From IMG/VR virus record IMGVR_UViG_3300025889_000149, positions 1 to 55,498 of that record: a DNA stretch of 55,498 bases; one strand, 5' to 3'. Of this stretch, positions 8,054-48,267 are shown one piece after another. The translations under genes were made by a program, and so were the position numbers. How positions within the stretch are numbered: position 1 is the first letter of the stretch; every line of letters begins with the position of its first letter. The stretch is from a virus. Taxonomy: Duplodnaviria > Caudoviricetes. The notes beneath the pieces are model-generated. The model worked only from the letters and a program-made list of their open reading frames with translations. It did no database searches and was not told the origin of the DNA.

Positions 8054-8194
8054 ATGAGAAAAGATGATACTTTTTATTGTGTAGAATGTGGTGCTCAATT
8101 ACCATGGCGTTATAAAGGCAGGCAAAAGATATATTGTTCACAAGGTTGTAGAAAAGCATACACAAAGAAGCAAGATGAAAAAAATATACATTGA
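8054..8194 (+). CDS. 46-aa treble-clef-type zinc finger (not in ORF track)
   Basis: CVECG...YCSQGCR; TATA-like CTTATATA at 8024-8031. Confidence 0.65.
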   Translation: MRKDDTFYCVECGAQLPWRYKGRQKIYCSQGCRKAYTKKQDEKNIH

Positions 8195-8528
8195 CGGTGG
8201 TACTAGATACAACCAAATATGCCTAGTCGATGGAGACAAAGTTATCGTCAAAACTCGATGTTGTAAACTTACTAATAATGAATTAGAATATCTTGCATTA
8301 ATATACGCATTAGAATACTGTAACAATGTTCACTCAAAAGAAAATGTCACAATATATAGTGACTCTATGTTGGTAGTAAAACAAGTCACTGGTAAGTGGA
8401 GAATAACAACAGACAGATTAGAAAGATTACATACTAAGGTCATGAAAAAAATGACTGATAAAATAAAAATAATGTGGATAAGTAGAGATTTTAATCTTGC
8501 TGGACATGTTCTTGAACGGAAGATTTAG
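8175..8528 (+). CDS. rnhA: Ribonuclease HI
   Basis: IYIDGG, TNNELEYLAL, YSDS, WISRDFN; likely start ATG 8175 rather than 8088. Confidence 0.85.
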   Translation: MKKIYIDGGTRYNQICLVDGDKVIVKTRCCKLTNNELEYLALIYALEYCNNVHSKENVTIYSDSMLVVKQVTGKWRITTDRLERLHTKVMKKMTDKIKIMWISRDFNLAGHVLERKI

Positions 8529-17033: not shown

Positions 17034-17276
17034 ATGGTATTCATTATGGTTACTACCACGTTTAAAGTTATAGGAAATGATAGAGGTAATTACTATCATA
17101 ACAGCACTAGAGTAATAATATACCTACAAAACCATGAATGTATAGAAGATATTTACAAAACTATCACTCATGAAATGATTCATCATTGTATCAACGAAGC
17201 TGGAGAAGAGATGGATGATGATCAAGAAGAGGGATTAATTTTTGCCATTCAATGGGCTGAAGAAACATTAATTTGA
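17034..17276 (+). CDS. Minimal HExxH zincin-like protein
   Basis: RGNY...VIIYL...TITHEMIHH...QEE. Confidence 0.6.
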   Translation: MVFIMVTTTFKVIGNDRGNYYHNSTRVIIYLQNHECIEDIYKTITHEMIHHCINEAGEEMDDDQEEGLIFAIQWAEETLI

Positions 17277-17569
17277 TAATTTTTATCAACATATACCAAC
17301 GATGGCTTATTATCATCTAATAATACAGTATGTTTTTCATATAATTGAGTTTCATATCTATCTAATGCTTCTAAATCTTGTTCAGAGACTTCGAACCAAC
17401 CACCCTCTACAACACTGTTTTTATTTTTCTTTATTGATGGGTATGGAAGTAAACTATGTTCTGTTATCTCGAATCCACTTAGTGTTATCATTGTTAATTT
17501 GGAATCTCTATCTAATACTCTGTATCTGAGAGAATCATTCAATAATGAACCATACACAAATATTCTCAT
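17249..17569 (-). CDS. Gamma-glutamylcyclotransferase (AIG2-like)
   Basis: IFVYGSL, YPSI, VEG, LDRYE...Y. Confidence 0.85.
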   Translation of the reverse strand: MRIFVYGSLLNDSLRYRVLDRDSKLTMITLSGFEITEHSLLPYPSIKKNKNSVVEGGWFEVSEQDLEALDRYETQLYEKHTVLLDDNKPSLVYVDKNYQINVSSAH

Positions 17570-17780: not shown

Positions 17781-18050
17781 TCAATACCAATTAATTCCCT
17801 TACAGTCATAACATGTAGTGCCAGCAAGAACTTCAACATTAGACATATATTTCTTGCATGTATCACACTCTGTATATTGTGGATTATGTTTAGTAGAATT
17901 TTCATTAACAATCTCAACTGCACGAAGATATTTCTTAAGTCTATCAACATCGTATTCTATTAATTCTTCTTTCTTTGATACGGACATTGGAATCCATATC
18001 CTTTCCTCGATGTTTATAATTCTTTTTACTATCTTATCTTTTTCATTCAT
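17781..18050 (-). CDS. Hypothetical protein with C-terminal CxxC-CxxC
   Basis: ECDTC...TCYDC; ATGA coupling to vWA gene. Confidence 0.6.
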   Translation of the reverse strand: MNEKDKIVKRIINIEERIWIPMSVSKKEELIEYDVDRLKKYLRAVEIVNENSTKHNPQYTECDTCKKYMSNVEVLAGTTCYDCKGINWY

Positions 18051-19705
18051 CGTGTGTTTCTGATTACTAATTTTCTAAACTCTTTAATAATCTTTTCTTC
18101 AGCACCATTCATGTCTGAGAACTCAAAGTATCTACTCTTACCGAATATCTTATTCATCAATACTCTTGGACTGTATCTAAGTATTCTCCTAGATGTTAAC
18201 ATGATACACATCACATGAGGATTATTTCGTCTCACTTTAAGTAATGATTTCTTTGTCAATGATACCATCTGCATATCACTAAGTTTGTATTTCTTACTTC
18301 TATATTCTGGCTTACCATCTGTCAACATGATTAAGAGTTTCTTTCTACCTTTCATCTTGTTTAACTGCATTGAAGAGTATTCAAGTGCTAAATGTGTAGG
18401 TGTTAAACCATATCCAGTTTTGAATGTAATGTATTTACAATCTTCGTATGACTTTATCTCTGTAATACCTACATCTCCCATACTATTAGACCCCCATACA
18501 TTAGCCCTTAACTCAATACCTTTTTGGTTACTCAATCCTTTGAATAAACTTGCGACAAAGTTTCTGGCTTTCTCCATGTTGTTATCAAAGTTAACCATAG
18601 ATCCAGACCCATCAATAGATATGACAATAGATACACCCTTATCTATCTTATCAGTTAACATTACCTCAGTCCTATCCTTACCATTTACTTTGTTATCTAT
18701 GTATTGTTCTACATCTACTTCATAGCCATCATGACTATGTTTAACAGTCTTCAACTCATGTATCTTTGTTAGGAATTTTCTGATTCCAATTTCAATCTTT
18801 GGATTTACTGTGACAGTATCTTTACCTCTGCGTATCATGGTAAACTTTCTGTTAAGTTGTGGTTTTTCACTGTTCGCTTTCTCTGCTATTGTCTCTGCTA
18901 TATTATCTATAACATCGTTATACTCTGATCTGTCTTCTTTTAATGATTCTTCTAGTTCTATTTCCTCAGTCAATTCTTCTTTTTTCTCTATGTCTTTAAT
19001 CATTTCCTCATCAATATCTGATAACGGAGATGATGAACTACTATTAATATCAGGTATATCAGGTCTAGGCTGTCCTCTCTTCTCTACATTTCTATTCTTA
19101 TACCATTCTTCAATGTATGGTTTCAAATAGTTTAATATCTTGACAGTACCAAACTTACCAGTACCAACAACAATACCCAATGCATAAGAATATACATCTG
19201 CATATTCGCTAGTTACCAAGTCGTCTCTGTAAAATCTCTGTCTTAAAAGTATACCATCAGGTTGATTAGTGTCATCTATTCTCATTCCCTTTCCTAGTTT
19301 TTTTCTAGTAGAAACAAATCTAGATTCATTTGCTCTCCATATATCAGCTACAAAAGCCTCAATACGTTGATCTTCAATTATATTAAAACAAGACCAGTAT
19401 ACACCTTTAAGGAATGGATCTTCAGTCCACTTTGCTATCATATCTTTTACTGGTGTGAATAAAGATTCCCCAAGTATGTGACCACACTCATGTGATAACG
19501 CTGTTATACGTGATATGTTTTTCTGAGCAGGGTTTGATATGTTCATTTGATAAGAGTTAATACCATCTCTAGTACCATTCCATGCGACAAAATTATCTCC
19601 ACTAAAGTTTGTAAGGTTAACCTTACAATCCTTAGCGTACTCTACAATGTCTACAACATTTCTAAAGTATTCACTGTCTGATAATATCTCTCTGTTACGA
19701 GCCAT
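18047..19705 (-). CDS. vWA-domain protein with N-terminal HExxH region (CobT-like partner of MoxR ATPase)
   Basis: HECGH, FNIIEDQRIE, acidic linker, MIDAS DGSGS, TP, MLTDG. Confidence 0.85.
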   Translation of the reverse strand: MARNREILSDSEYFRNVVDIVEYAKDCKVNLTNFSGDNFVAWNGTRDGINSYQMNISNPAQKNISRITALSHECGHILGESLFTPVKDMIAKWTEDPFLKGVYWSCFNIIEDQRIEAFVADIWRANESRFVSTRKKLGKGMRIDDTNQPDGILLRQRFYRDDLVTSEYADVYSYALGIVVGTGKFGTVKILNYLKPYIEEWYKNRNVEKRGQPRPDIPDINSSSSSPLSDIDEEMIKDIEKKEELTEEIELEESLKEDRSEYNDVIDNIAETIAEKANSEKPQLNRKFTMIRRGKDTVTVNPKIEIGIRKFLTKIHELKTVKHSHDGYEVDVEQYIDNKVNGKDRTEVMLTDKIDKGVSIVISIDGSGSMVNFDNNMEKARNFVASLFKGLSNQKGIELRANVWGSNSMGDVGITEIKSYEDCKYITFKTGYGLTPTHLALEYSSMQLNKMKGRKKLLIMLTDGKPEYRSKKYKLSDMQMVSLTKKSLLKVRRNNPHVMCIMLTSRRILRYSPRVLMNKIFGKSRYFEFSDMNGAEEKIIKEFRKLVIRNTR

Positions 19706-20614
19706 CTATTTCACATTAGTTCCAAATATCTCATTGATTCTAGCAGTGATTAGCTCACGCTCTTCAACCTCAGAGTATTTTGCGATGATTACTTGCTTCA
19801 AGGAATATGTCAGTGCCATTAATGGTTCTAACTCTTTGTGTAACATTCTGTAATACTCACAGAATTGGTCTATGTCTCTAGGAGATAATACATACTCAAC
19901 ATCGCCTTTCATTCTCAATGCGTGAGTTTCCTGAGCCAGTGTTAACAATGGTCTCTTTATTGTATTCTCTTCAACACCATCCCAATCGATGATATTCTCT
20001 AGTTGTTTACTTGTTGGGTATGTAAGTATGTCTCCAATCATTCTACTTCTCAAGTCTTCTGTCAATGAGTTTACACCTGAGTATGTAATAGGATTCATAG
20101 TACCAACTATAACAAGTCTACATCCCTCATTAAGTTTGTAGATTTTATTATTTGCTACTACTGATCTTCTCTTATCGAATGGTCTGTTCAATAACTTCAT
20201 TATGTCATGCTGATTAGCATTTAGTTCATCAAGGTATAGAACACATACACCATACTTATTTGCAACTTCATAGGAAATAGGTAATACACCTAACTCAAAG
20301 AATGATCCATCATCATTTATCTGAGTCCTACCCAGTAAGTCTCCCTTGTTAGTGTTTGAACTACAAGAAAACTCTACCAATGGATAGCCTAACTTTCTGC
20401 ATAGAGTATAGACTAACAGTGTTTTACCAACACCCTTGTCTCCCTCTATCAAGTATGGCATAGTACCATATTTGAATGTGAGCTCGAGTAACTTCATCTC
20501 GTCTCCAACTGGAATGTACTCTCCCCAATTAGCCAAGTTCTTTGGATCGTATTGGTCAAAGTCTATCTCTGCGTTTGGTACGCAGATTTTTTTATTTTTG
20601 TTTACATCAGTCAT
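19706..20614 (-). CDS. MoxR/CbbQ/CobS-type AAA+ ATPase
   Basis: GDKGVGKT, LYLDELN, GTMNP..Y.G, LRSR, SPR; adjacent to vWA gene; likely start ATG 20614. Confidence 0.9.
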   Translation of the reverse strand: MTDVNKNKKICVPNAEIDFDQYDPKNLANWGEYIPVGDEMKLLELTFKYGTMPYLIEGDKGVGKTLLVYTLCRKLGYPLVEFSCSSNTNKGDLLGRTQINDDGSFFELGVLPISYEVANKYGVCVLYLDELNANQHDIMKLLNRPFDKRRSVVANNKIYKLNEGCRLVIVGTMNPITYSGVNSLTEDLRSRMIGDILTYPTSKQLENIIDWDGVEENTIKRPLLTLAQETHALRMKGDVEYVLSPRDIDQFCEYYRMLHKELEPLMALTYSLKQVIIAKYSEVEERELITARINEIFGTNVK

Positions 20615-20619
20615 TATAA

Positions 20620-20922
20620 TTATTCCTCGTGATAATCCCACCAGCTTCCCTCAGCCCATCCCATACATTCACACTGTTGACGTATACCATTATGGTCTGT
20701 ATATGCAACTGCATCACATGCATGAGCAACTTCTCCATTAGCATCATATTCAATCTGATTATATTCAAAATCTCCCTCTTCATTTAAAGGTTTACTTGTG
20801 TCACGAATTTCTAATTCTTTATCAGTTTCGTAATGCATATCCCAAGTGTGTCCACATCTGGCACACTTTGGATTATAACCATCACACATACTGTCTGTTA
20901 CACCACATGGTAGACTACTCAT
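20620..20922 (-). CDS. Zinc-binding hypothetical protein
   Basis: CARCGH...H...C...CEC, same ligand layout as microprotein 1563..1709. Confidence 0.6.
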   Translation of the reverse strand: MSSLPCGVTDSMCDGYNPKCARCGHTWDMHYETDKELEIRDTSKPLNEEGDFEYNQIEYDANGEVAHACDAVAYTDHNGIRQQCECMGWAEGSWWDYHEE

Positions 20923-26075: not shown

Positions 26076-26219
26076 TCACACAAACTCAGGAACGCCCTGT
26101 GTTGTGTTTCTACCCTGCACTCTGGCTTTAGAATGAAACTCTGTATGTCTTTTAACCCTTAAAGAAAAATCGGGGTCTGTCTCATCGAAGTGCATTGAGC
26201 ACAAAGAACAATTAGCCAT
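26076..26219 (-). CDS. 47-aa C2H2-like cassette microprotein (not in ORF track)
   Basis: MANCSLC...RHTEFH; promoter B7 22 nt upstream. Confidence 0.7.
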   Translation of the reverse strand: MANCSLCSMHFDETDPDFSLRVKRHTEFHSKARVQGRNTTQGVPEFV

Positions 26220-26316
26220 AAGTAACATTGGTCGTTATGATATATAAATATAGATATGAAGCCCTATCGTATCATCATTCTTAAATACCCCTACTATCCC
26301 TAATAATAAAAAAGAG

Positions 26317-28232: not shown

Positions 28233-28380
28233 AGTCCTCTAGAAATTCTCTCATAACCATATAATCATCATTGTCTTCTAATATTTCATCCCATAGATGT
28301 GAACATCGAGGGCAAGGGGAGAAAATAAACAGATATGTCATAATATCATATTCTTCAACTGTCTGCTTTCTCATTTTCAC
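28186..28380 (-). CDS. Hypothetical protein
   Basis: Overlapping minus-strand ORF with CPRC. Confidence 0.45.
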   Translation of the reverse strand: MKMRKQTVEEYDIMTYLFIFSPCPRCSHLWDEILEDNDDYMVMREFLEDFRNDPQYNRLLARYK

Positions 28381-28564
28381 TTACCTTTTTCATGTCAAGC
28401 ATATATGATGCTTGTATTCGAAACATACACTTCATGAGTTCTTTACCTGAGAACTTGGTGGATCTTTCCCTAGTATGTGAACCAAATCTTTTACCACATG
28501 CTACACATATAGTATTCTCCAAGTTCTTTCTAGTAAATAGAATAGAATTCTCCATTATATCCAC
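28355..28564 (-). CDS. Zinc-binding hypothetical protein
   Basis: CVACGKRFGSH...LMKC. Confidence 0.6.
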   Translation of the reverse strand: MDIMENSILFTRKNLENTICVACGKRFGSHTRERSTKFSGKELMKCMFRIQASYMLDMKKVSENEKADS

Positions 28565-28728
28565 TTAGAATATTCCCTTTCATAAGCTTTACGCATCTTG
28601 TTGACATTTGGGCGTTTTTCTTGTTTAAGCAGGCGTTTTAGATATAAAATGCCTATCGGTATTCCGACGATTGTGCAAAAGAGGAACGTAAGTATTCCAA
28701 CTTGCCATGTTTTTACATTGTCTAACAT
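28555..28728 (-). CDS. Small single-TM membrane protein (likely start 28728)
   Basis: Hydrophobic LFCTIVGIPIGILY segment followed by basic tail. Confidence 0.55.
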   Translation of the reverse strand: MLDNVKTWQVGILTFLFCTIVGIPIGILYLKRLLKQEKRPNVNKMRKAYEREYSKWI

Positions 28729-28765
28729 AACATATACACGCCTGCGACCTTTATAAATCTGTCGG

Positions 28766-28932
28766 AAAAAAATTCGGGTGCTTCGCACCCTGACGTTAGT
28801 AGTCTTACATTCCCATAAGGAAAGGGATAAATCTTACGTGTTTATCCACTCACGACCTGTGAGAACGAGTCTAAGAGGGCTACCGTTGAACCCACATTCG
28901 TTGTGCACTCATGGTGGTAATCCCTGACGACT
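28766..28932 (-). ncRNA. ~165-nt multi-stem ncRNA candidate
   Basis: TATAAATA ~22 nt upstream; stems UAGUC/GACUA, AGGG(A)UUACC/GGUAGCCCU, CUCAC/GUGAG, GGAUAAA/UUUAUCC, UUCC/GGAA; terminal GGGUGC-GAA-GCACCC then U7. Confidence 0.65.
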
Positions 28933-29065
28933 AGTTATAGTATGTAGTTCTGATATTTATATATTACATATTTTAGTGCCAGCGATTATTCGTAAAGGAC
29001 ACGTTGGTTCTAAAATATCTGTAGTTATAAAAAAATATGTTACTAGTGTTAATAATATTCCTATG

Positions 29066-29260
29066 CTAAATATGATGCGAATCATCATCATCATCCTCAC
29101 CATGTAATTTATGCTCTTCTAGTTTTTCTTCACATAAGAATGTGAGTTTCCAAAAAGTTCTACGATCTTTCAAAGTTATAGAATCAGTACCAAGCCTGCC
29201 AAATGCGAGTTCAAACCAATGCAGTAACGTGGTATAGTCTTCTATCTCGAATTCTACCAT
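29066..29260 (-). CDS. Small hypothetical protein
   Basis: 64 aa, WFELAFG...TFWKL, acidic tail. Confidence 0.6.
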   Translation of the reverse strand: MVEFEIEDYTTLLHWFELAFGRLGTDSITLKDRRTFWKLTFLCEEKLEEHKLHGEDDDDDSHHI

Positions 29261-29281
29261 AAAAAAAGTTAGTTTTGGTAT

Positions 29282-29488
29282 TTAAATTCTTTTGTGTTCA
29301 TACCTACCACGCTTAAATCGGACATTTCCTCGTAATCTATCTCCACAGCATGGACAGTTGTAATTTTTTCCCTCAAATAAAGAACGAATATACCAAGTTT
29401 CGCATTTTGCACACTTTAATGAATCTCTGTAGTTTCGAGTTCCTCTTTCGGGTTTTACTCGTTTACACAAGTTTTTACAAAAATGCAT
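29282..29488 (-). CDS. Cys-rich zinc finger (paralogue family)
   Basis: CKNLC...CAKCETW...CPCCGDRLR. Confidence 0.65.
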   Translation of the reverse strand: MHFCKNLCKRVKPERGTRNYRDSLKCAKCETWYIRSLFEGKNYNCPCCGDRLRGNVRFKRGRYEHKRI

Positions 29489-29512
29489 GTTTGATATAAT
29501 AACTTTAGGTAT

Positions 29513-29594
29513 AAAAACCTAGCTGGCTCGCAACACCAGTCCTCTTCCTCAACGTAAAGCATCATAGAAGTATGCATGCTCACACCACTAGGCA
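29513..29594 (-). ncRNA. ~80-nt tRNA-like small RNA candidate
   Basis: CCUAG/CUAGG terminal stem stacked on CUGGU-GUUGCGA-GCCAG hairpin, AGUGGU motif, AGCAU(G)CAUA/UAUGAUGCU stem, U5 end, TATAAAG upstream. Confidence 0.45.
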
Positions 29595-29629
29595 ATAATA
29601 CTTAAATAAATGACTTTATATGTATTATT

Positions 29630-29779
29630 ATGCCTGAAGAATATGTTTCAGAATCAGAAGTTTTGGATTTAATCAGCCCACCAAAAGAGGAAAAAACAAG
29701 AAAAAAATCCACTGATAATGGCTCATGCACTTGTGAACCAAATCATGCTAGAGACATTTATTGTAAAATCCACAGTTAA
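29630..29779 (+). CDS. 49-aa microprotein with CxC...CxxH (not in ORF track)
   Basis: CTTAAATA at 29601 is 22 nt upstream of the ATG. Confidence 0.55.
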   Translation: MPEEYVSESEVLDLISPPKEEKTRKKSTDNGSCTCEPNHARDIYCKIHS

Positions 29780-29842
29780 AAAAACGTAAAATTTACGTCA
29801 TTTTTACAAAACTTTATATAATAAACTTTCGAGTATTACCTT

Positions 29843-31804
29843 ATGGGTATTACCGATTATTTTACCAATATTGGTAAGGCTTTAGTCAATTTAAATAAAT
29901 CTCAGACTGAAACTACAGTTAGACCTAGTATTACAACACCATATATGAGTACCGATAGTGGTGCTAAACTACCTATTTTCCCATTCCCACTCGTTATGAT
30001 CTACGAGTTGGCAGATAACATTGATGCTTTGCGTATTCCTATTGAGACTTTAAACAGAGAGATGTTTAAGAATGGATTTGAGATTGTAGAGAAATGGAAA
30101 TACAAATGTGATAACTGTGGTAAAGAGTTTCAATATGCACCAGTCGCAGAATCAAATCCAGATGAACAACCATTTAGTTCAAACCAAGACAATGAAACAA
30201 ACGCTATTCCAGCCAAAAAGGCTATTATTGATGAATCACATCTAATGTGTGATACATGTGGTAACACTAAACTAAGAAGACCAGTTCCAGAACATAGAAA
30301 ATTGCTCGAAAAACTGATAAAAGAACCAGTAAACGGTAACAATCAGACACTTGAAGACCTATCTAGACAGATAGAAAGAGATCTGGAAATAGCAGATAAT
30401 GCATACCTTTTAGCACTAAAAAGTTACAAAATCAACGATTCTACTGGTAAAATTAACCATGATGAGACTGAAATTAAGGAATATTTGAGATTAGATCCAC
30501 CACAAGTAGCCATGATTTGTGACTCTGATGGTAGATTAGGATATAATGATAAACATGAACCTATCTTTGTATGTCCATACTTTGAACATAGAAGAACTAG
30601 ACTTCACAAAGATATGTGTGACAAGACAGATGATGGAATTCACGAAAAACCTGTAGAAGCATTAAAAGCAATAGTAGAGGTAAATGCTGTCTATTCAATC
30701 GGAACGCCACAACCAAAGTCTGTAATCTATGGAGAGGGAGAATTAATTTGGAAAGCTGGAAAGTATAAACCATCACTAGTATATGGTTTCTCCCCAATTT
30801 ATGCTGTTTGGTCAAAAGCCATGACATTATCTCACATGGATGAGTATGTTAGAAAATATTTCGATAAAATGAGACCACCTAGAGGTATGTTGGTTATTGC
30901 ATCAAGAAACTATGAGACATTTAGAAAATCATGGAATGAATTAGAACAAAGGGCAACTGAAGACCCATACATGATACATCCATTGATGGTAGAATCAGAG
31001 AAAGGTGGAAAGAACATGGCACAGTGGATTGATTTCACTGGATCATTAAGAGAATTAGAATTTATTGAGGTTAGAAAAGAATTAAGACAACTTATTGGTG
31101 CTATCTATGGTGTATTACCATTATACTATGGAGAGATGGTAGGTGGATGGTCTCAAGAGGGATTACAAGTTACAATTACTAATAGAGCAGTAAAATGGGG
31201 TCAAGACATATTAACTGCATCATTCTTTGATAAAATTGCAAGGATGTTAAACGTTGATGATTGGCATTTAAGACTTAAAGGTGGAGAAGAAAACGACAAA
31301 CTCAGAGAATTACAAACTGAGGGTGTTGAGATTCAAAACATGGCTCTATTACAACAAATGGGCTTTGATATTACTAGAACTCACACTGGAGAGTTTAAAG
31401 TAAGCAAAGAAACAGCACTAAGTGCGAGTGATATGATGGCACAAAATGCCATGCCAAGAATGGGTAGAGGTAGAGGAACTGCATCTCCACAAGAAAACAG
31501 ACAGAATATGCAGGGAGAACCAATGTTAACAAGACCATCTGATATGGGTGGTGTTGGTCAAGGATTCCCAGCAAGTGGATCTGGCACTTCAATGTCAAAG
31601 AAATCATTTAAAGATGGTATTACACCAAATAACTTTGATAAGGTTAAAGAAATATTAAACAAAGCAATCGAATATGACTGGAACAAAGGTCAAACTGTTG
31701 ATGAACTTAGAAAAGCAGACATGACAGTAAGACAGGCTAGAGAACTGGTCAAAAACGAGTTCGACGTTATGAAAAGATGGGAAAATGACAAAGAAGAATC
31801 ATAA
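29843..31804 (+). CDS. Portal protein with zinc-ribbon insertion
   Basis: DLEIADNAYL, YGFSPI, YFDKMRPPRGML, IGAIYGV portal motifs; CDNC...CDTC insert; first gene of head module. Confidence 0.85.
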   Translation: MGITDYFTNIGKALVNLNKSQTETTVRPSITTPYMSTDSGAKLPIFPFPLVMIYELADNIDALRIPIETLNREMFKNGFEIVEKWKYKCDNCGKEFQYAPVAESNPDEQPFSSNQDNETNAIPAKKAIIDESHLMCDTCGNTKLRRPVPEHRKLLEKLIKEPVNGNNQTLEDLSRQIERDLEIADNAYLLALKSYKINDSTGKINHDETEIKEYLRLDPPQVAMICDSDGRLGYNDKHEPIFVCPYFEHRRTRLHKDMCDKTDDGIHEKPVEALKAIVEVNAVYSIGTPQPKSVIYGEGELIWKAGKYKPSLVYGFSPIYAVWSKAMTLSHMDEYVRKYFDKMRPPRGMLVIASRNYETFRKSWNELEQRATEDPYMIHPLMVESEKGGKNMAQWIDFTGSLRELEFIEVRKELRQLIGAIYGVLPLYYGEMVGGWSQEGLQVTITNRAVKWGQDILTASFFDKIARMLNVDDWHLRLKGGEENDKLRELQTEGVEIQNMALLQQMGFDITRTHTGEFKVSKETALSASDMMAQNAMPRMGRGRGTASPQENRQNMQGEPMLTRPSDMGGVGQGFPASGSGTSMSKKSFKDGITPNNFDKVKEILNKAIEYDWNKGQTVDELRKADMTVRQARELVKNEFDVMKRWENDKEES

Positions 31805-37586: not shown

Positions 37587-37668
37587 CATCGATGATTAAC
37601 ATACGGTTTTCTTTATATACTGTTTGTGCCTGATTAATATTTATATTCTATTAATTCAATATATACCT

Positions 37669-38232
37669 ATGGCACAAATGCCAGCTCTAATACCAAAGGA
37701 AGTAGAAATCCAGAGACTAAAGAAAATCTGGCTCATAGTGATCGCTATGGGTTCAACTGCTGTCTCAGTAGAGGTAGATAACTTTGTCGATGGTTCACTT
37801 CATCAAACATCCATTAGAGATTCTGCATTTACCCCTGCACACTGGTGGCTATATTCACACTTTGTAGCATTACCTTTAGGATGGGGTTCAGTAGCAATCT
37901 ATGATAGGAAAGTTCCTATTCTTAGAGGTGTAAACAATTCAATGAATACTGGATTGAAAATGACCATTCTTGGTTATTTGGCTACAATGTTTACTATTGG
38001 TGTAAACGAAATGTGGCACTTTTGGTTCGTTGAAGAAATATTTGCAGTACCTAATCACTGGATGTTTAACATGGGTGTTGTAGTTGCTTTCATGGGTGCA
38101 CTAGCTTATGTCGTAAGAGTATATGCTAGACTGGTTGAACTTGGATGTGAAACACCAAGTGAAAATCCATACGTTGCAGAAATGTATAAGATGGCACTAG
38201 AGGGAAAGCTGTACAGCAGATCAATCCCATAA
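37669..38232 (+). CDS. amoC: Archaeal ammonia monooxygenase subunit C (auxiliary metabolic gene)
   Basis: MAQMPALIPKEVEIQRLKKIW...VDGSLHQTSIRDSAFTPAHWWLYSH...NEMWHFWFVEEIFAVPNHW; 187 aa from ATG 37669. Confidence 0.97.
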   Translation: MAQMPALIPKEVEIQRLKKIWLIVIAMGSTAVSVEVDNFVDGSLHQTSIRDSAFTPAHWWLYSHFVALPLGWGSVAIYDRKVPILRGVNNSMNTGLKMTILGYLATMFTIGVNEMWHFWFVEEIFAVPNHWMFNMGVVVAFMGALAYVVRVYARLVELGCETPSENPYVAEMYKMALEGKLYSRSIP

Positions 38233-46099: not shown

Positions 46100-48267
46100 G
46101 CAAAGTTAAGATATGTCATATTAGAAGAGATACAAACGGAATAATAACACATAGAAGATTCATCAAACCAAAAAGTGCTATTGTACGAAGAGAGGGATCT
46201 AGAGCACCTGATAACATGGAGTTTACATCTGATTTAGTTCCACAGTTAAGAGAAAATGATGAAATATATTATATCCAAGATGTTGTAGATACTGATAACT
46301 TAGTAGGAATGTATAATTTCTATGGTAACTTTAGAGATGAATCTGGATTTGAACAAGATTTTAATAGATCAAGTGGTATAGATATACCTGAATGTGTTGA
46401 CAAATCAACTGCTGGTAGTTTGAATGAAAGGTTAAGGTTATCAGATCCATCTGCAACTTCTATGGCAAAAAAATATCGTGGTTTCTACAAAATGACAGAA
46501 AACGCAACTTCTGATGATGGTGTTCAAATGAAAAAAGCATTTTATCAACAAAACACAGCAAACTCACCTATAATAGATTTAAGTGGAGATTTTGATATAT
46601 GGATAGAATATGCATCAAATCTTGATGTTGGTCTTTATACTTTATTAGATTTTTATAATGAAAGCACAAGTAAAGGGTTTATATTACAACTTGATATGGC
46701 TAACAATCAGATAAAAATAACATGTAATGATGGTGGAACTGCAAATATTTCTACTGGATCATTTACAGCCAGTACAGATATGCATTTGCTTAGATTTTAT
46801 AGGCAAGATGGAACTTTAAAATTATACATAGACAAGTCTGAAATAACATTGACTAATAGTTCATTTAGTGGTGACATGAATGACAGTAATCAGTATTGGT
46901 ATATGTGTAAGAAATATGATGAAAGTACAAGCACTTGGTCTGATGGGTTTTATGGGTGGTTATTTCAATTAAGATTCTATACTCAAGTATTAAGTGATGA
47001 TGATGCAACTGTTTTATGGACATGTAAAGCACAGCAATTAACAATGAAATTTGGTGGATTCGTGTGGAGAATAGATGATGGTGTAACTAGAAGAATACAA
47101 TGTAAAGGATGGTCTTCTAAGGTTTTATCTAAAATTATATCACCATCAACAATAACAAACGCACCAAGTTTTTCAGAAGTATCAAGAACTGGTGTCCTAT
47201 ATACTGGTGGTCAGGGAAGTGAAATACTTAGAGATGTGATTGAAAATATAGGTGACAATGAATTTTGTTTTACTACAGAAGAACCCAGTAGTAATCCAAT
47301 ACAATACACGTTTGGATCTCTTAATGCATACGGTACATTGTTAGATTTATTAGAATTTATAATAGTAATGAGCAGTAGTTCTAAAAAATATTTTTTTAAT
47401 GTTTTACCAAGAAAAACAATAATAATAGATGAAGAATTAGATGCAAATTTAGCATGTAATGATAAAACTTCAGATGTAATAGAGCAATATCATGATGATA
47501 GTAGAACTGTAAACATGTTAGAAATATCTGCAAATAACCAAATCAAACATGATGTTTATACTAGACCCTATAGTGCAACTGGAACTGAATATGTTATACA
47601 GGGAAGTGATACTTTAAACAATGCAAATAATTCAGATGTTGTAGTAGAGACATTGTTAAAAGCCACAATAAATGGTAATGATGCACCAATCTACATGTCT
47701 GATGAAACATTACCAAGTGGACAATATGGTATAAAATTAAATATATCTAGAGATAAATTTGAAATTTCATCTCCAAATTCCACTGGAAATACAGTTAAAC
47801 TTTGGTTTACATTTAGATATTTTATATTAAATGCATTGTCAACTATACAAGTTATAACTGATCCAACATCTGTGAATACTATAGGGGAATATCCTAGAAG
47901 AATTAATGTAAAACAATTAGATGATGGTATAAATTTAGGTATATTTGCAAATAGATACCTTAATTTATATAAAAATGTAAAGAAAAGAGTAAAAGTAAGA
48001 TTTAACGGATTAGTTAATTCTGTAACAATAGGTCAAAAACTACCAGTTCACTATGTAACAAAAAAATTATATACATCATACGATCCCAGCACTGAAGAAA
48101 TTGAGCCAGAAAGACTTAACGTATCATCCATAGAATATAGATACCCCGAGGGAATAACTATATTGGAACTTGGTGAAAATGAATTTAACACGTTTGATTT
48201 AGAGAAAATAACGATTGAGGGATTAAGAGGTGTGGATAATTCAATCAGTAAAAATACCTTAATTTGA
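46096..48267 (+). CDS. Tail hub/tip protein with LamG-like insertion
   Basis: LVGMYNF...FDIW...LYID...LRFYTQVLS LamG pattern inside a hub-like protein. Confidence 0.6.
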   Translation: MSKVKICHIRRDTNGIITHRRFIKPKSAIVRREGSRAPDNMEFTSDLVPQLRENDEIYYIQDVVDTDNLVGMYNFYGNFRDESGFEQDFNRSSGIDIPECVDKSTAGSLNERLRLSDPSATSMAKKYRGFYKMTENATSDDGVQMKKAFYQQNTANSPIIDLSGDFDIWIEYASNLDVGLYTLLDFYNESTSKGFILQLDMANNQIKITCNDGGTANISTGSFTASTDMHLLRFYRQDGTLKLYIDKSEITLTNSSFSGDMNDSNQYWYMCKKYDESTSTWSDGFYGWLFQLRFYTQVLSDDDATVLWTCKAQQLTMKFGGFVWRIDDGVTRRIQCKGWSSKVLSKIISPSTITNAPSFSEVSRTGVLYTGGQGSEILRDVIENIGDNEFCFTTEEPSSNPIQYTFGSLNAYGTLLDLLEFIIVMSSSSKKYFFNVLPRKTIIIDEELDANLACNDKTSDVIEQYHDDSRTVNMLEISANNQIKHDVYTRPYSATGTEYVIQGSDTLNNANNSDVVVETLLKATINGNDAPIYMSDETLPSGQYGIKLNISRDKFEISSPNSTGNTVKLWFTFRYFILNALSTIQVITDPTSVNTIGEYPRRINVKQLDDGINLGIFANRYLNLYKNVKKRVKVRFNGLVNSVTIGQKLPVHYVTKKLYTSYDPSTEEIEPERLNVSSIEYRYPEGITILELGENEFNTFDLEKITIEGLRGVDNSISKNTLI

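Follow-up and report, generated by a model that had tools for sequence, protein, structure and literature searches.

We analysed the window of 55,498 bases that makes up the entire IMG/VR virus record IMGVR_UViG_3300025889_000149 (completeness estimate 89%), and we find that its minus strand very probably carries, from 28932 down to 28766, a real and independent gene for a structured non-coding RNA (ncRNA) of about 167-169 nucleotides (nt). On balance we favour reading it as a small viral ncRNA gene of a modular family, having its own archaeal-type promoter and oligo-U terminator and presumably acting in trans. The family matches no Rfam family and we did not find it described in the literature searched, where we came across no structured ncRNA from these viruses. 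An initial annotation, made from the letters of the window alone, had proposed a highly structured RNA at this place; comparison with relatives bears this out, since covarying helices are found in 46 distinct relatives of one part of the RNA (the A module, its 5′ hairpin) and in 13 of a second (the B module), and the check for covariation that the annotation had suggested thus finds conserved pairing in both.

Relatives of the portal protein of this virus are encoded at 71 loci, and a blastn search with the element itself recovered only locus L002 (78% identity over 225 nt) and fragments in L003 and L004. The kernel common to the window and these loci, read on the minus strand, is (A/G)GUC GUC AGGG AU UACC ... 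GGUA G CCCU CUUA GAC(U/C); a 15-mer from it matches 66 viral stretches, and the 3′ half is also present in 16 of them, which are true members. A gapped pattern of the kernel matches 15 viral stretches, and the same pattern with its variable positions as N matches 19 viral and 55 metagenome stretches. A regular expression run over the loci up to L199 gave 90 matches, of which 88 pass a pairing filter (the two dropped for lack of pairing are both obviously unrelated) and reduce to 46 distinct copies, drawn from viral and metagenome contigs. We define the family by P1, (G)UC, a 4-bp P2 ending in GG/CC, A-N opposite N, P3 (UACC/GGUA), a free apex, CU(U/A)A, and the returning strand P1′. The window shows both this structure pattern and a TATA-like box 30-33 nt upstream, the two marks by which we recognise the A-module family.

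A covariance model built on the A module (R1) finds the element in the window at 60.2 bits (E 3.1e-13), the runner-up in the window, searched with filters off, reaching 8.9 bits; the remaining members lie at 41.9-70.1 bits and diverged copies at 32-39 bits, all E-values of this model being rough owing to a short calibration. We also searched cellular genomes. The gapped pattern, run against one genome each of 185,579 species, matched two stretches (23.4 and 19.3 bits), both without AUUACC/GGUAG, and these look chance-like. In the family of the host, R1 found nothing at E ≤ 0.01 in 151 genomes, with only 34 candidates per genome scored, and in five close host genomes nothing better than E = 2.4 when rounded (best E 2.38). 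The comparison with Rfam that the initial annotation had suggested returned no catalogued family for the locus: the 4227 models of Rfam 15 at their gathering thresholds gave no match across the whole window; at E ≤ 10 the region 28600-29100 gave only snR5 (14.9 bits, gathering threshold 45), mcrA (14.7 bits, threshold 57.6), and Hammerhead_3 (13.4 bits, threshold 48.5); and 12 related loci gave no match at E ≤ 0.5. ARAGORN predicted no tRNA or tmRNA gene in the window.

The A module (28868-28932, minus strand; alignment A2, model R1) is an irregular hairpin. Its outer helix P1 pairs 28932-28929 with 28871-28868 (AGUC/GACU) and is joined to P2 by J1/2 (GUC, 28928-28926) on one strand and J2/1 (CUUA, 28875-28872) on the other; P2 pairs 28925-28922 with 28879-28876 (AGGG/CCCU); an internal loop sets AU (28921-28920) opposite G (28880); and P3 pairs 28919-28916 with 28884-28881 (UACC/GGUA). 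The apical domain of 31 nt (28915-28885) has its own hairpin and contains the 10-codon open reading frame (ORF; AUG AGU ... CGG UAG) that the initial annotation had noted, which does exist in the RNA sense. Across the 46 copies in alignment A2, 92.5% of the cells are paired, as against 87.1% in shuffles, and the covariation score is 0.213 as against 0.105, a value reached by none of 500 shuffles; when the partner is slid by one column, pairing falls to 35-51%. For example, the outer P1 pair (columns 3 and 111) is AU in 22 sequences, GC in 18, and unpaired in six, and all six unpaired cases (U-U) are downstream units of tandem arrays; the pair 11-102 is GC in 33 sequences, AU in six, GU in four, CG in two, and UA in one. 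P2 occurs as AGGG/CCCU, AAGG/CCUU, UCGG/CCGA, UGGG/CCCA, UUGG/CCAA, and GGGG/CCCU, and because columns 10, 11, 102, and 103 stood as N in the search patterns, pairing at these columns was not imposed by the search. P3 shows almost no variation, and the G-C pairs at columns 12-101 and 13-100 show none. Pairs of the G.U kind outnumber A.C pairs by 12:0 in the A module (and by 13:2, counted in cells, in the B module); this excess indicates an RNA read from the minus strand and speaks against a DNA palindrome.

The apical region spans 3 to 73 nt among the copies. Its loop types are conserved across different contigs (AAAGAGUACUUCACAGGAAAUAAC and relatives, for example), and tandem arrays such as those in L151, L174, L182, and L191 have apical loops of only 3-4 nt (AAC, AUUA, AGUC, AAAC). 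Judged by these copies, the apical loop is dispensable. In L045 the same kernel sits inside a different P1 (GAGAUC/GAUCUC). Two known motifs were considered for the A module and rejected by eye: a K-turn, since the tandem G.A is missing, and a bulge-helix-bulge splicing motif, the bulges here facing each other.

The B module (28825-28867, minus strand; alignment A3) follows directly on the A module and consists of CGUU (28867-28864), the hairpin B1 with the sequence CUCAC-AGGUC-GUGAG (28863-28849), a single U (28848), and the hairpin B2, GGAUAAA-CACGUAAGA-UUUAUCC (28847-28825). Alignment A3 holds 13 distinct sequences, chosen solely by the two loop motifs, and all follow the layout CGUU, B1 (5 bp, loop A(G/A)GUC), U, and B2 (6-8 bp, loop CACGUAAGN). 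The loops A(G/A)GUC and CACGUAAG vary little or not at all, and the stems around them vary in a compensating way: 94.9% of the cells are paired, 11 of the 12 pairs change on both sides, and the covariation score of 0.886 (0.298 for shuffles) is again reached by none of 500 shuffles. Downstream of B2 lies a pyrimidine-rich linker (28791-28824, minus strand; from a constrained fold and comparison with L002 and L115), which contains a small hairpin UUUCC-UUAU-GGGAA (28823-28810; constrained fold) and ends in a second CGUCA (28795-28791). The stretch 28791-28824 is common only to the closest relatives, L002 and L115, too few sequences for covariation.

The conserved helices thus form a row of hairpins: A (P1 to P3 with the apical hairpin), B1, B2, the small hairpin, and the terminator. 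The initial annotation had counted at least six stems, which holds, and had arranged them in a multi-way junction, which is not supported. An unconstrained minimum free energy (MFE) fold of the 169-nt RNA includes 25 of the 30 conserved pairs.

Both ends of the predicted transcript are marked. A TATA-like box, ATATATAA, lies at 28957-28964 (minus strand, read from 28964 to 28957), its first base 33 nt upstream of GUCGUC, and from its position transcription is predicted to start at about 28932-28934; given the usual archaeal distance of about 26 nt between TATA box and start site, this would put the first transcribed base at P1 or immediately before it. The initial annotation had given the RNA a TATA box of its own, and the spacing of this box is kept in the family: a TATA-like A/T 8-mer starts 30-33 nt before GUCGUC in 35 of the 41 family loci, compared with 726 of 20500 random positions in the same loci (3.5%). 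The six exceptions comprise four loci with a near-TATA, interrupted by one G or C, at the same place (judged by eye), and two that are second units of arrays. At the other end, the GC-rich terminal hairpin and U7 are present as the initial annotation had them, on the minus strand (28766-28790): the hairpin GGGUGCGAAGCACCC (28790-28776) is followed by GAA and then by U7 (28772-28766). A terminator scan of 28400-29300 found this site alone, one site against 0.2 expected. The units of L002, L003, L004, and L115 similarly close with a UGCGAAGCA-type hairpin and a U run, and 26 of the 41 loci have at least five T in a row within the 330 nt that follow the core. As an observation of its own, UGCGAAGCA mini-hairpins (GCGAAGC) with a U or A run behind them mark off transcription units in the upstream regions of L079, L086, and L093; the window holds just one such mini-hairpin, at 28779-28787.

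The family is built from modules in several combinations. Within 330 nt after the first A core in each of the 41 loci we find a second A core in five, B in 11, D in eight, E in nine, and none of these in 13, where D and E denote further cassettes (below). Tandem A units are joined by a single nucleotide (...CUUAGAC-U-GUCGUCA...), and B stands alone behind its own TATA box in L004, L079, and L086. The D cassette reads AAGACUUGCACGGUGAU..AUGAAAGCCGUAGUCUU, sometimes with an inserted hairpin, and adjoins the A module in related loci; the E cassette is a covarying stem around AAGAACGUAGAUACGUCAU; and a C cassette is common to L093, L159, and L138 (examples of cassettes are at L189:1406-1650, L118:6700-6790, and L093:12507-12620). 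CGUCA is a motif common to A, C, and E, and it is also found in the 3′ part of the RNA in the window.

Within 2 kb of the RNA in the 41 loci, the neighbours include a portal gene in 19, a 64-residue acidic protein encoded just upstream in 15, and zinc-finger proteins in 11 and another 11. The 64-residue neighbour was tried as a linked partner and set aside as plain synteny, being present at 55 of the 71 portal loci; the A module is within 5 kb of the portal gene in four of the 71 (L002, L003, L004, and L045). Searches of whole records found one A locus in four of five other large related records, two of them being diverged copies of 32-33 bits.

We propose, from sequence comparison, that the RNA acts in trans as a platform recognised by a protein, either as a scaffold for a ribonucleoprotein or as a decoy (sponge); to this functional part of our reading we would give nearly even chances. 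The A module would open the transcript, the B module would come next, and the GC hairpin with U7 would end it. What suggests a protein platform is that the internal loops and the pairs next to them are fixed, the apex is dispensable, units are multiplied in tandem, and the module combines freely with other modules; such a pattern is typical of protein-binding hairpins and of sponge or scaffold RNAs, and less like riboswitches or guide RNAs. The partner may be one of the small basic zinc-finger proteins encoded nearby, or a host RNA-binding protein. Zinc-finger proteins of the virus are encoded at 28355-28564 and 29282-29488, among other places. A presence/absence comparison of the window, G704, and G706, which have the A module, with G707, which has none, singled out one ORF, a C2H2 zinc-finger ORF of 50 amino acids at 26076-26228 (minus strand), the comparison being of very low power. 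A homologue of this ORF adjoins the A-like copy in G708 (about 300 nt away); in G706 the distance is about 1.3 kb, two paralogues are present in G704, and tblastn found no homologue in G707. Zinc-finger proteins are the sole lead to a partner, and a weak one.

A bolder reading, which we put forward tentatively and hold to be a good deal less probable, is that these viruses own a toolkit of freely recombining hairpin cassettes, A to E, each with fixed sequences in its loops or internal loops and all combined into short RNAs behind dedicated promoters, in which A, multiplied in tandem at some loci, would be a high-affinity decoy or scaffold for a specific viral or host protein. If true, the A cassette would give archaeal viruses an equivalent of protein-sponge or Y-like RNAs, and would be the first device for host takeover or anti-defence based on ncRNA to be described for viruses of Nitrososphaeria. 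In a still bolder variant the A cassette would be a new self-processing motif that cuts arrays into units.

Several observations weigh against a trans-acting RNA gene of this kind. The fold is little more stable than that of shuffled sequences, a weak signal (MFE z-score −1.85 on either strand, with seven and eight of 200 shuffles folding equally well); what lifts the locus above chance is conservation, that is, the covarying helices in relatives, and not folding energy. Covariation in P2 and P3 is itself limited, so part of the structure signal is plain sequence conservation. Among the 24 runs listed, there is no RNA run that carries the sequence. In the complete relative G707 (65.5 kb, with terminal repeats) a search with the filters switched off still finds no A module (best score 10.2 bits), and thus the RNA is dispensable to the group. 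The A-like hairpin of G706 and G708 does not lie next to the promoter: a repeated promoter-like element precedes it by about 190 nt, and it closes what is presumably a longer unit at the 3′ end; in these diverged copies J1/2 is UC and not GUC, and wobble pairs hold P1. The loci concerned (L208:300-750 and L209:350-800) have direct repeats of the promoter-like sequence ACTTAAGTACTAGTAT flanking a unit of about 190 nt, and this unit ends in the diverged A-like hairpin and UUUU. For the partner protein the sequence data so far offer candidates only. Lastly, the longest downstream ORF is co-directional with the RNA in 27 of the 36 loci that could be assessed, which leaves room for an effect in cis on those genes.

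This bias in gene direction also favours an explanation that we consider unlikely, in which the RNA is a cis-acting leader (an attenuator, a switch, or put/nut-like antitermination) that controls read-through into co-directional genes. The A module does stand at the very 5′ end of the transcript in canonical members, and in the window, L002, L003, L004, and L115 the terminator is followed by co-directional genes. The initial annotation had taken this direction as well, proposing an attenuator or a switch of conformation that would govern the membrane and zinc-finger genes downstream, on the grounds of a repeat at both ends of the RNA. The repeat is there (CCCTGACG at 28788-28795 and 28922-28929, plus strand), and the alternative pairing proposed for it, in which the 5′ flank of the terminator takes up the CCCU strand of P2, could form in the window, L002, and L115, but L003 and L004 lack it, and covariation lends it no support. 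The 5′ copy, CGUCAGGG, belongs to the invariant core; the 3′ copy is not conserved, reading UCGAGGG in L002 and GUUCAGGG in L115, with nothing similar in L003 or L004.

The arrangement downstream also speaks against such a leader. The next gene in the window encodes a membrane protein of 57 amino acids (ATG at 28728, ORF down to 28555), and its box TTTATAAA, at 28750-28757 (minus strand, read from 28757 to 28750), comes directly after U7, outside the RNA, whose boundary it marks. As this box is 29 nt before the ATG, the gene would be a separate leaderless unit, and both the box and its distance to the gene recur in L002, L003, L004, and L115. The downstream genes differ by locus and belong to at least five unrelated families (portal, small membrane protein, zinc-finger protein, flavin adenine dinucleotide (FAD)-type oxidoreductase, and secreted protein), and in at least four loci (L152, L165, L176, and L179) the gene right after the RNA is convergent. 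For archaeal RNA polymerase an oligo-U tract is enough for termination, no hairpin being required, and we know of no established hairpin-dependent termination by this polymerase, so that an attenuator working by hairpin exchange would be without an established basis in this host domain. Membership in the attenuators or riboswitches was rejected, since mutually exclusive terminator and anti-terminator pairings are not conserved, the downstream gene has a TATA box of its own, and several unrelated gene families follow the element. With the 3′ repeat unconserved, the next gene behind its own TATA box, and the downstream genes varying, the switch of the initial annotation does not stand.

The length of the apical region, 3 to 73 nt with loop types conserved across contigs, would also suit a trans-acting antisense or guide RNA, in which the variable apical loop would select the target and the conserved stem would serve as a handle. 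We regard this as quite unlikely: copies with loops of 3-4 nt exist, and the array in L151 has only such copies; the apical domain in the window is a closed hairpin; and a 21-nt stretch of the commonest loop, allowing up to three mismatches on both strands, has no match in 61 genomes of the host's family, a search in which short seeds would escape notice. The invariant junction nucleotides within covarying helices, and the head-to-tail arrays with units one nucleotide apart, bring to mind a processing element, either a new small self-cleaving ribozyme or an endonuclease site at which arrays are cut into units. This is improbable in our view, considering that no known ribozyme model fits (the best, Hammerhead_3, reaches 13.4 bits where 48.5 is the gathering threshold, and its match covers the terminator hairpin on the opposite strand), that the helices beside the loops are also conserved in sequence, which is more typical of protein sites, and that most loci have a single unit.

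That the element might act as DNA, as a miniature inverted-repeat mobile element or a site of recombination or replication whose transcription is incidental, would agree with its varying position among related viruses and its absence from the complete relative, with tandem copy numbers that differ between near-identical contigs, and with a place about 1 kb from the minimum of the cumulative GC skew in the window and in G704. The chances of this are slim: the arms, where a DNA palindrome should show both kinds of mismatch, show only G.U; the asymmetric blocks (GUC vs CUUA, AU vs G) are fixed and the spacing of the arms ranges over 3-73 nt; orientation and distance to the TATA box are constant; and the association with GC skew is seen in only two of four genomes (not in G705 or G706). 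Hardly any credence, finally, is due to a small protein gene on the plus strand, an ORF of 49 amino acids at 28778-28927 overlooked by the initial annotation, which had stated that the locus contains only the 10-codon ORF: its reading frame is unbroken in the window, L002, L115, and L003 as far as a conserved TGA inside CCCTGACGAC, but across the 46 copies the median for that frame is 16 open codons, an ATG in frame is present in 6/46 and the stop is lost in 5/46, loop lengths do not differ by multiples of three, and substitutions in the helices are compensatory. The 49-residue ORF is not conserved, and by this evidence the locus is not coding.

We read the window as belonging to a head-tail virus of ammonia-oxidising archaea, because of its genes for AmoC, MCM, RadA, terminase, and portal. 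The amoC gene is at 37624-38232 (plus strand), and its product is up to 97% identical to cellular AmoC, with matches up to that identity in 58 of 401 sampled genomes of one archaeal phylum; archaeal AmoC is a marker of ammonia-oxidising archaea. The portal-like protein is encoded at 29843-31804 (Pfam Phage_portal, E 7.7e-06, under the curated cut-off), and the record also codes for a T4-type large terminase with a nuclease domain, RadA/Rad51, and MCM. The G+C content of the window is about 34%, and that of the RNA locus 0.40-0.43, compared with 0.31-0.35 in its surroundings.

Other features of the window were noted along the way. A second conserved RNA-like element with its own TATA-like box (CCUAGCUGGCUCGCAACACCAGUCCUC...GUAUGCAUGCUCACACCACUAGG) is at 29508-29595 (plus strand), just upstream of an ORF of 49 amino acids and the portal gene; it has no Rfam match, blastn finds it at 35 loci (22 of them among the 71 portal loci), and its stems CUGGC/ACCAG, CUACU/AGUAG, and CUGAU/GUCAG visibly covary. 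The cumulative GC-skew minimum (about 29500-30000) coincides with the main divergent switch in gene orientation, as it does in G704 at about 33 kb, and may indicate a replication origin or merely gene strand bias. At 18047-20641 (minus strand) a MoxR-type AAA_5 ATPase lies beside a protein of 552 amino acids with a C-terminal VWA domain (18047-19705), a pair that is kept in G704, G706, G707, and G708. An RNase H (8088-8528) and a GGACT-family protein (17249-17569) are also encoded.

The RNA gene, conserved and present at a single locus, is an entry point to RNA-based regulation or virus-host conflict in this archaeal lineage. The covariance model R1 picks related viral contigs in metagenomes with a wide gap (members at 41.9 bits or more, others at 23.4 bits or less), and the small fixed-loop hairpins are promising as new motifs of RNA-protein recognition.

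Several known systems share parts of this design, and some of them can be set aside. An archaeal H/ACA guide RNA was rejected: the A module has internal loops of 3x4 and 2x1 nt, it lacks a tandem G.A, no ACA is conserved downstream of P1, and the snR5 match is insignificant (E 4.1). The hammerhead ribozyme was rejected too, the match of 13.4 bits (threshold 48.5) being partial and on the plus strand, where the conserved CCCUGACGAC becomes CCGAGACGAC in L004. RNA anti-CRISPRs are likewise short, virus-borne units that have promoters of their own, may stand in tandem, and show high sequence conservation, but the element here is a hairpin of inverted arms and not a direct repeat. A mimic of a CRISPR repeat was rejected, given that the 16-nt 3′ arm has no exact or clustered matches in 301 genomes of the host class (a sample which includes the unpublished G450, on which no claim rests), and matches with up to two mismatches are about as frequent as for a reversed control. 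In one genome of that class, G608, contig 2 has six dispersed identical copies of GGTAGATCTCTTAGAC on one strand that are near-matches to the 3′ arm; these are probably an unrelated repeat of that genome.

The packaging RNA (pRNA) of phi29 is also a structured RNA of about 120-170 nt from a tailed virus, and the element studied here is within 2 kb of a portal gene in 19 of 41 loci. It differs from pRNA in having no Rfam match, in that no conserved pair of intermolecularly complementary loops was found, and in that G707 does without the RNA; T4-type terminases with a nuclease domain are not known to need an RNA. The put sites of HK022 and the nut sites of lambda likewise place hairpins with conserved internal loops close to a promoter and ahead of terminators and further genes, whereas here transcription is archaeal, at least four loci have a convergent downstream gene, and downstream genes have their own promoters (similarity to these sites was judged by Rfam only).

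Closer in function are three groups of RNAs. Similar to the element here, ToxI and phage pseudo-ToxI combine a promoter, a structured repeat RNA, a terminator, and a downstream gene, and occur as accessory units in viruses; here, in contrast, unrelated genes (small membrane protein, portal, zinc finger) lie downstream and most loci have a single unit. We found no ToxN-like endoribonuclease downstream, where Pfam finds nothing in the flanking small proteins and no PADLOC scan was made. Y and Y-like RNAs (RF00019), which also occur in phages, are likewise modular, with an end helix whose conserved bulges form a protein handle and with variable modules appended, and P1, in the form (U)GGUC...GACC(A), presumably resembles the Ro-binding helix. 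The Y_RNA model has no match at the locus, its sole hit in the record being one of 11 bits (E 0.92) at 47716-47785, and no TROVE domain was found in the only VWA protein of the virus (Pfam at E ≤ 10 shows just VWA, and there is no PDB relative), host genomes not having been searched for one. CsrB and RsmZ, protein-sponge small RNAs of bacteria, have their own promoter and terminator and repeated hairpins with the same fixed motif, in variable number. They differ in that a GGA in their apical loops binds CsrA, while here the fixed nucleotides are in internal loops and the window has one A unit; we know of no CsrA-like partner in archaea, and the Rfam scans gave no sequence or model similarity to them at the locus. 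The nearest functional analogues of the viral RNA may thus be the CsrB/RsmZ sponge or scaffold small RNAs, the Y-like RNAs, and the type III antitoxin arrays, as resemblances and not as memberships.

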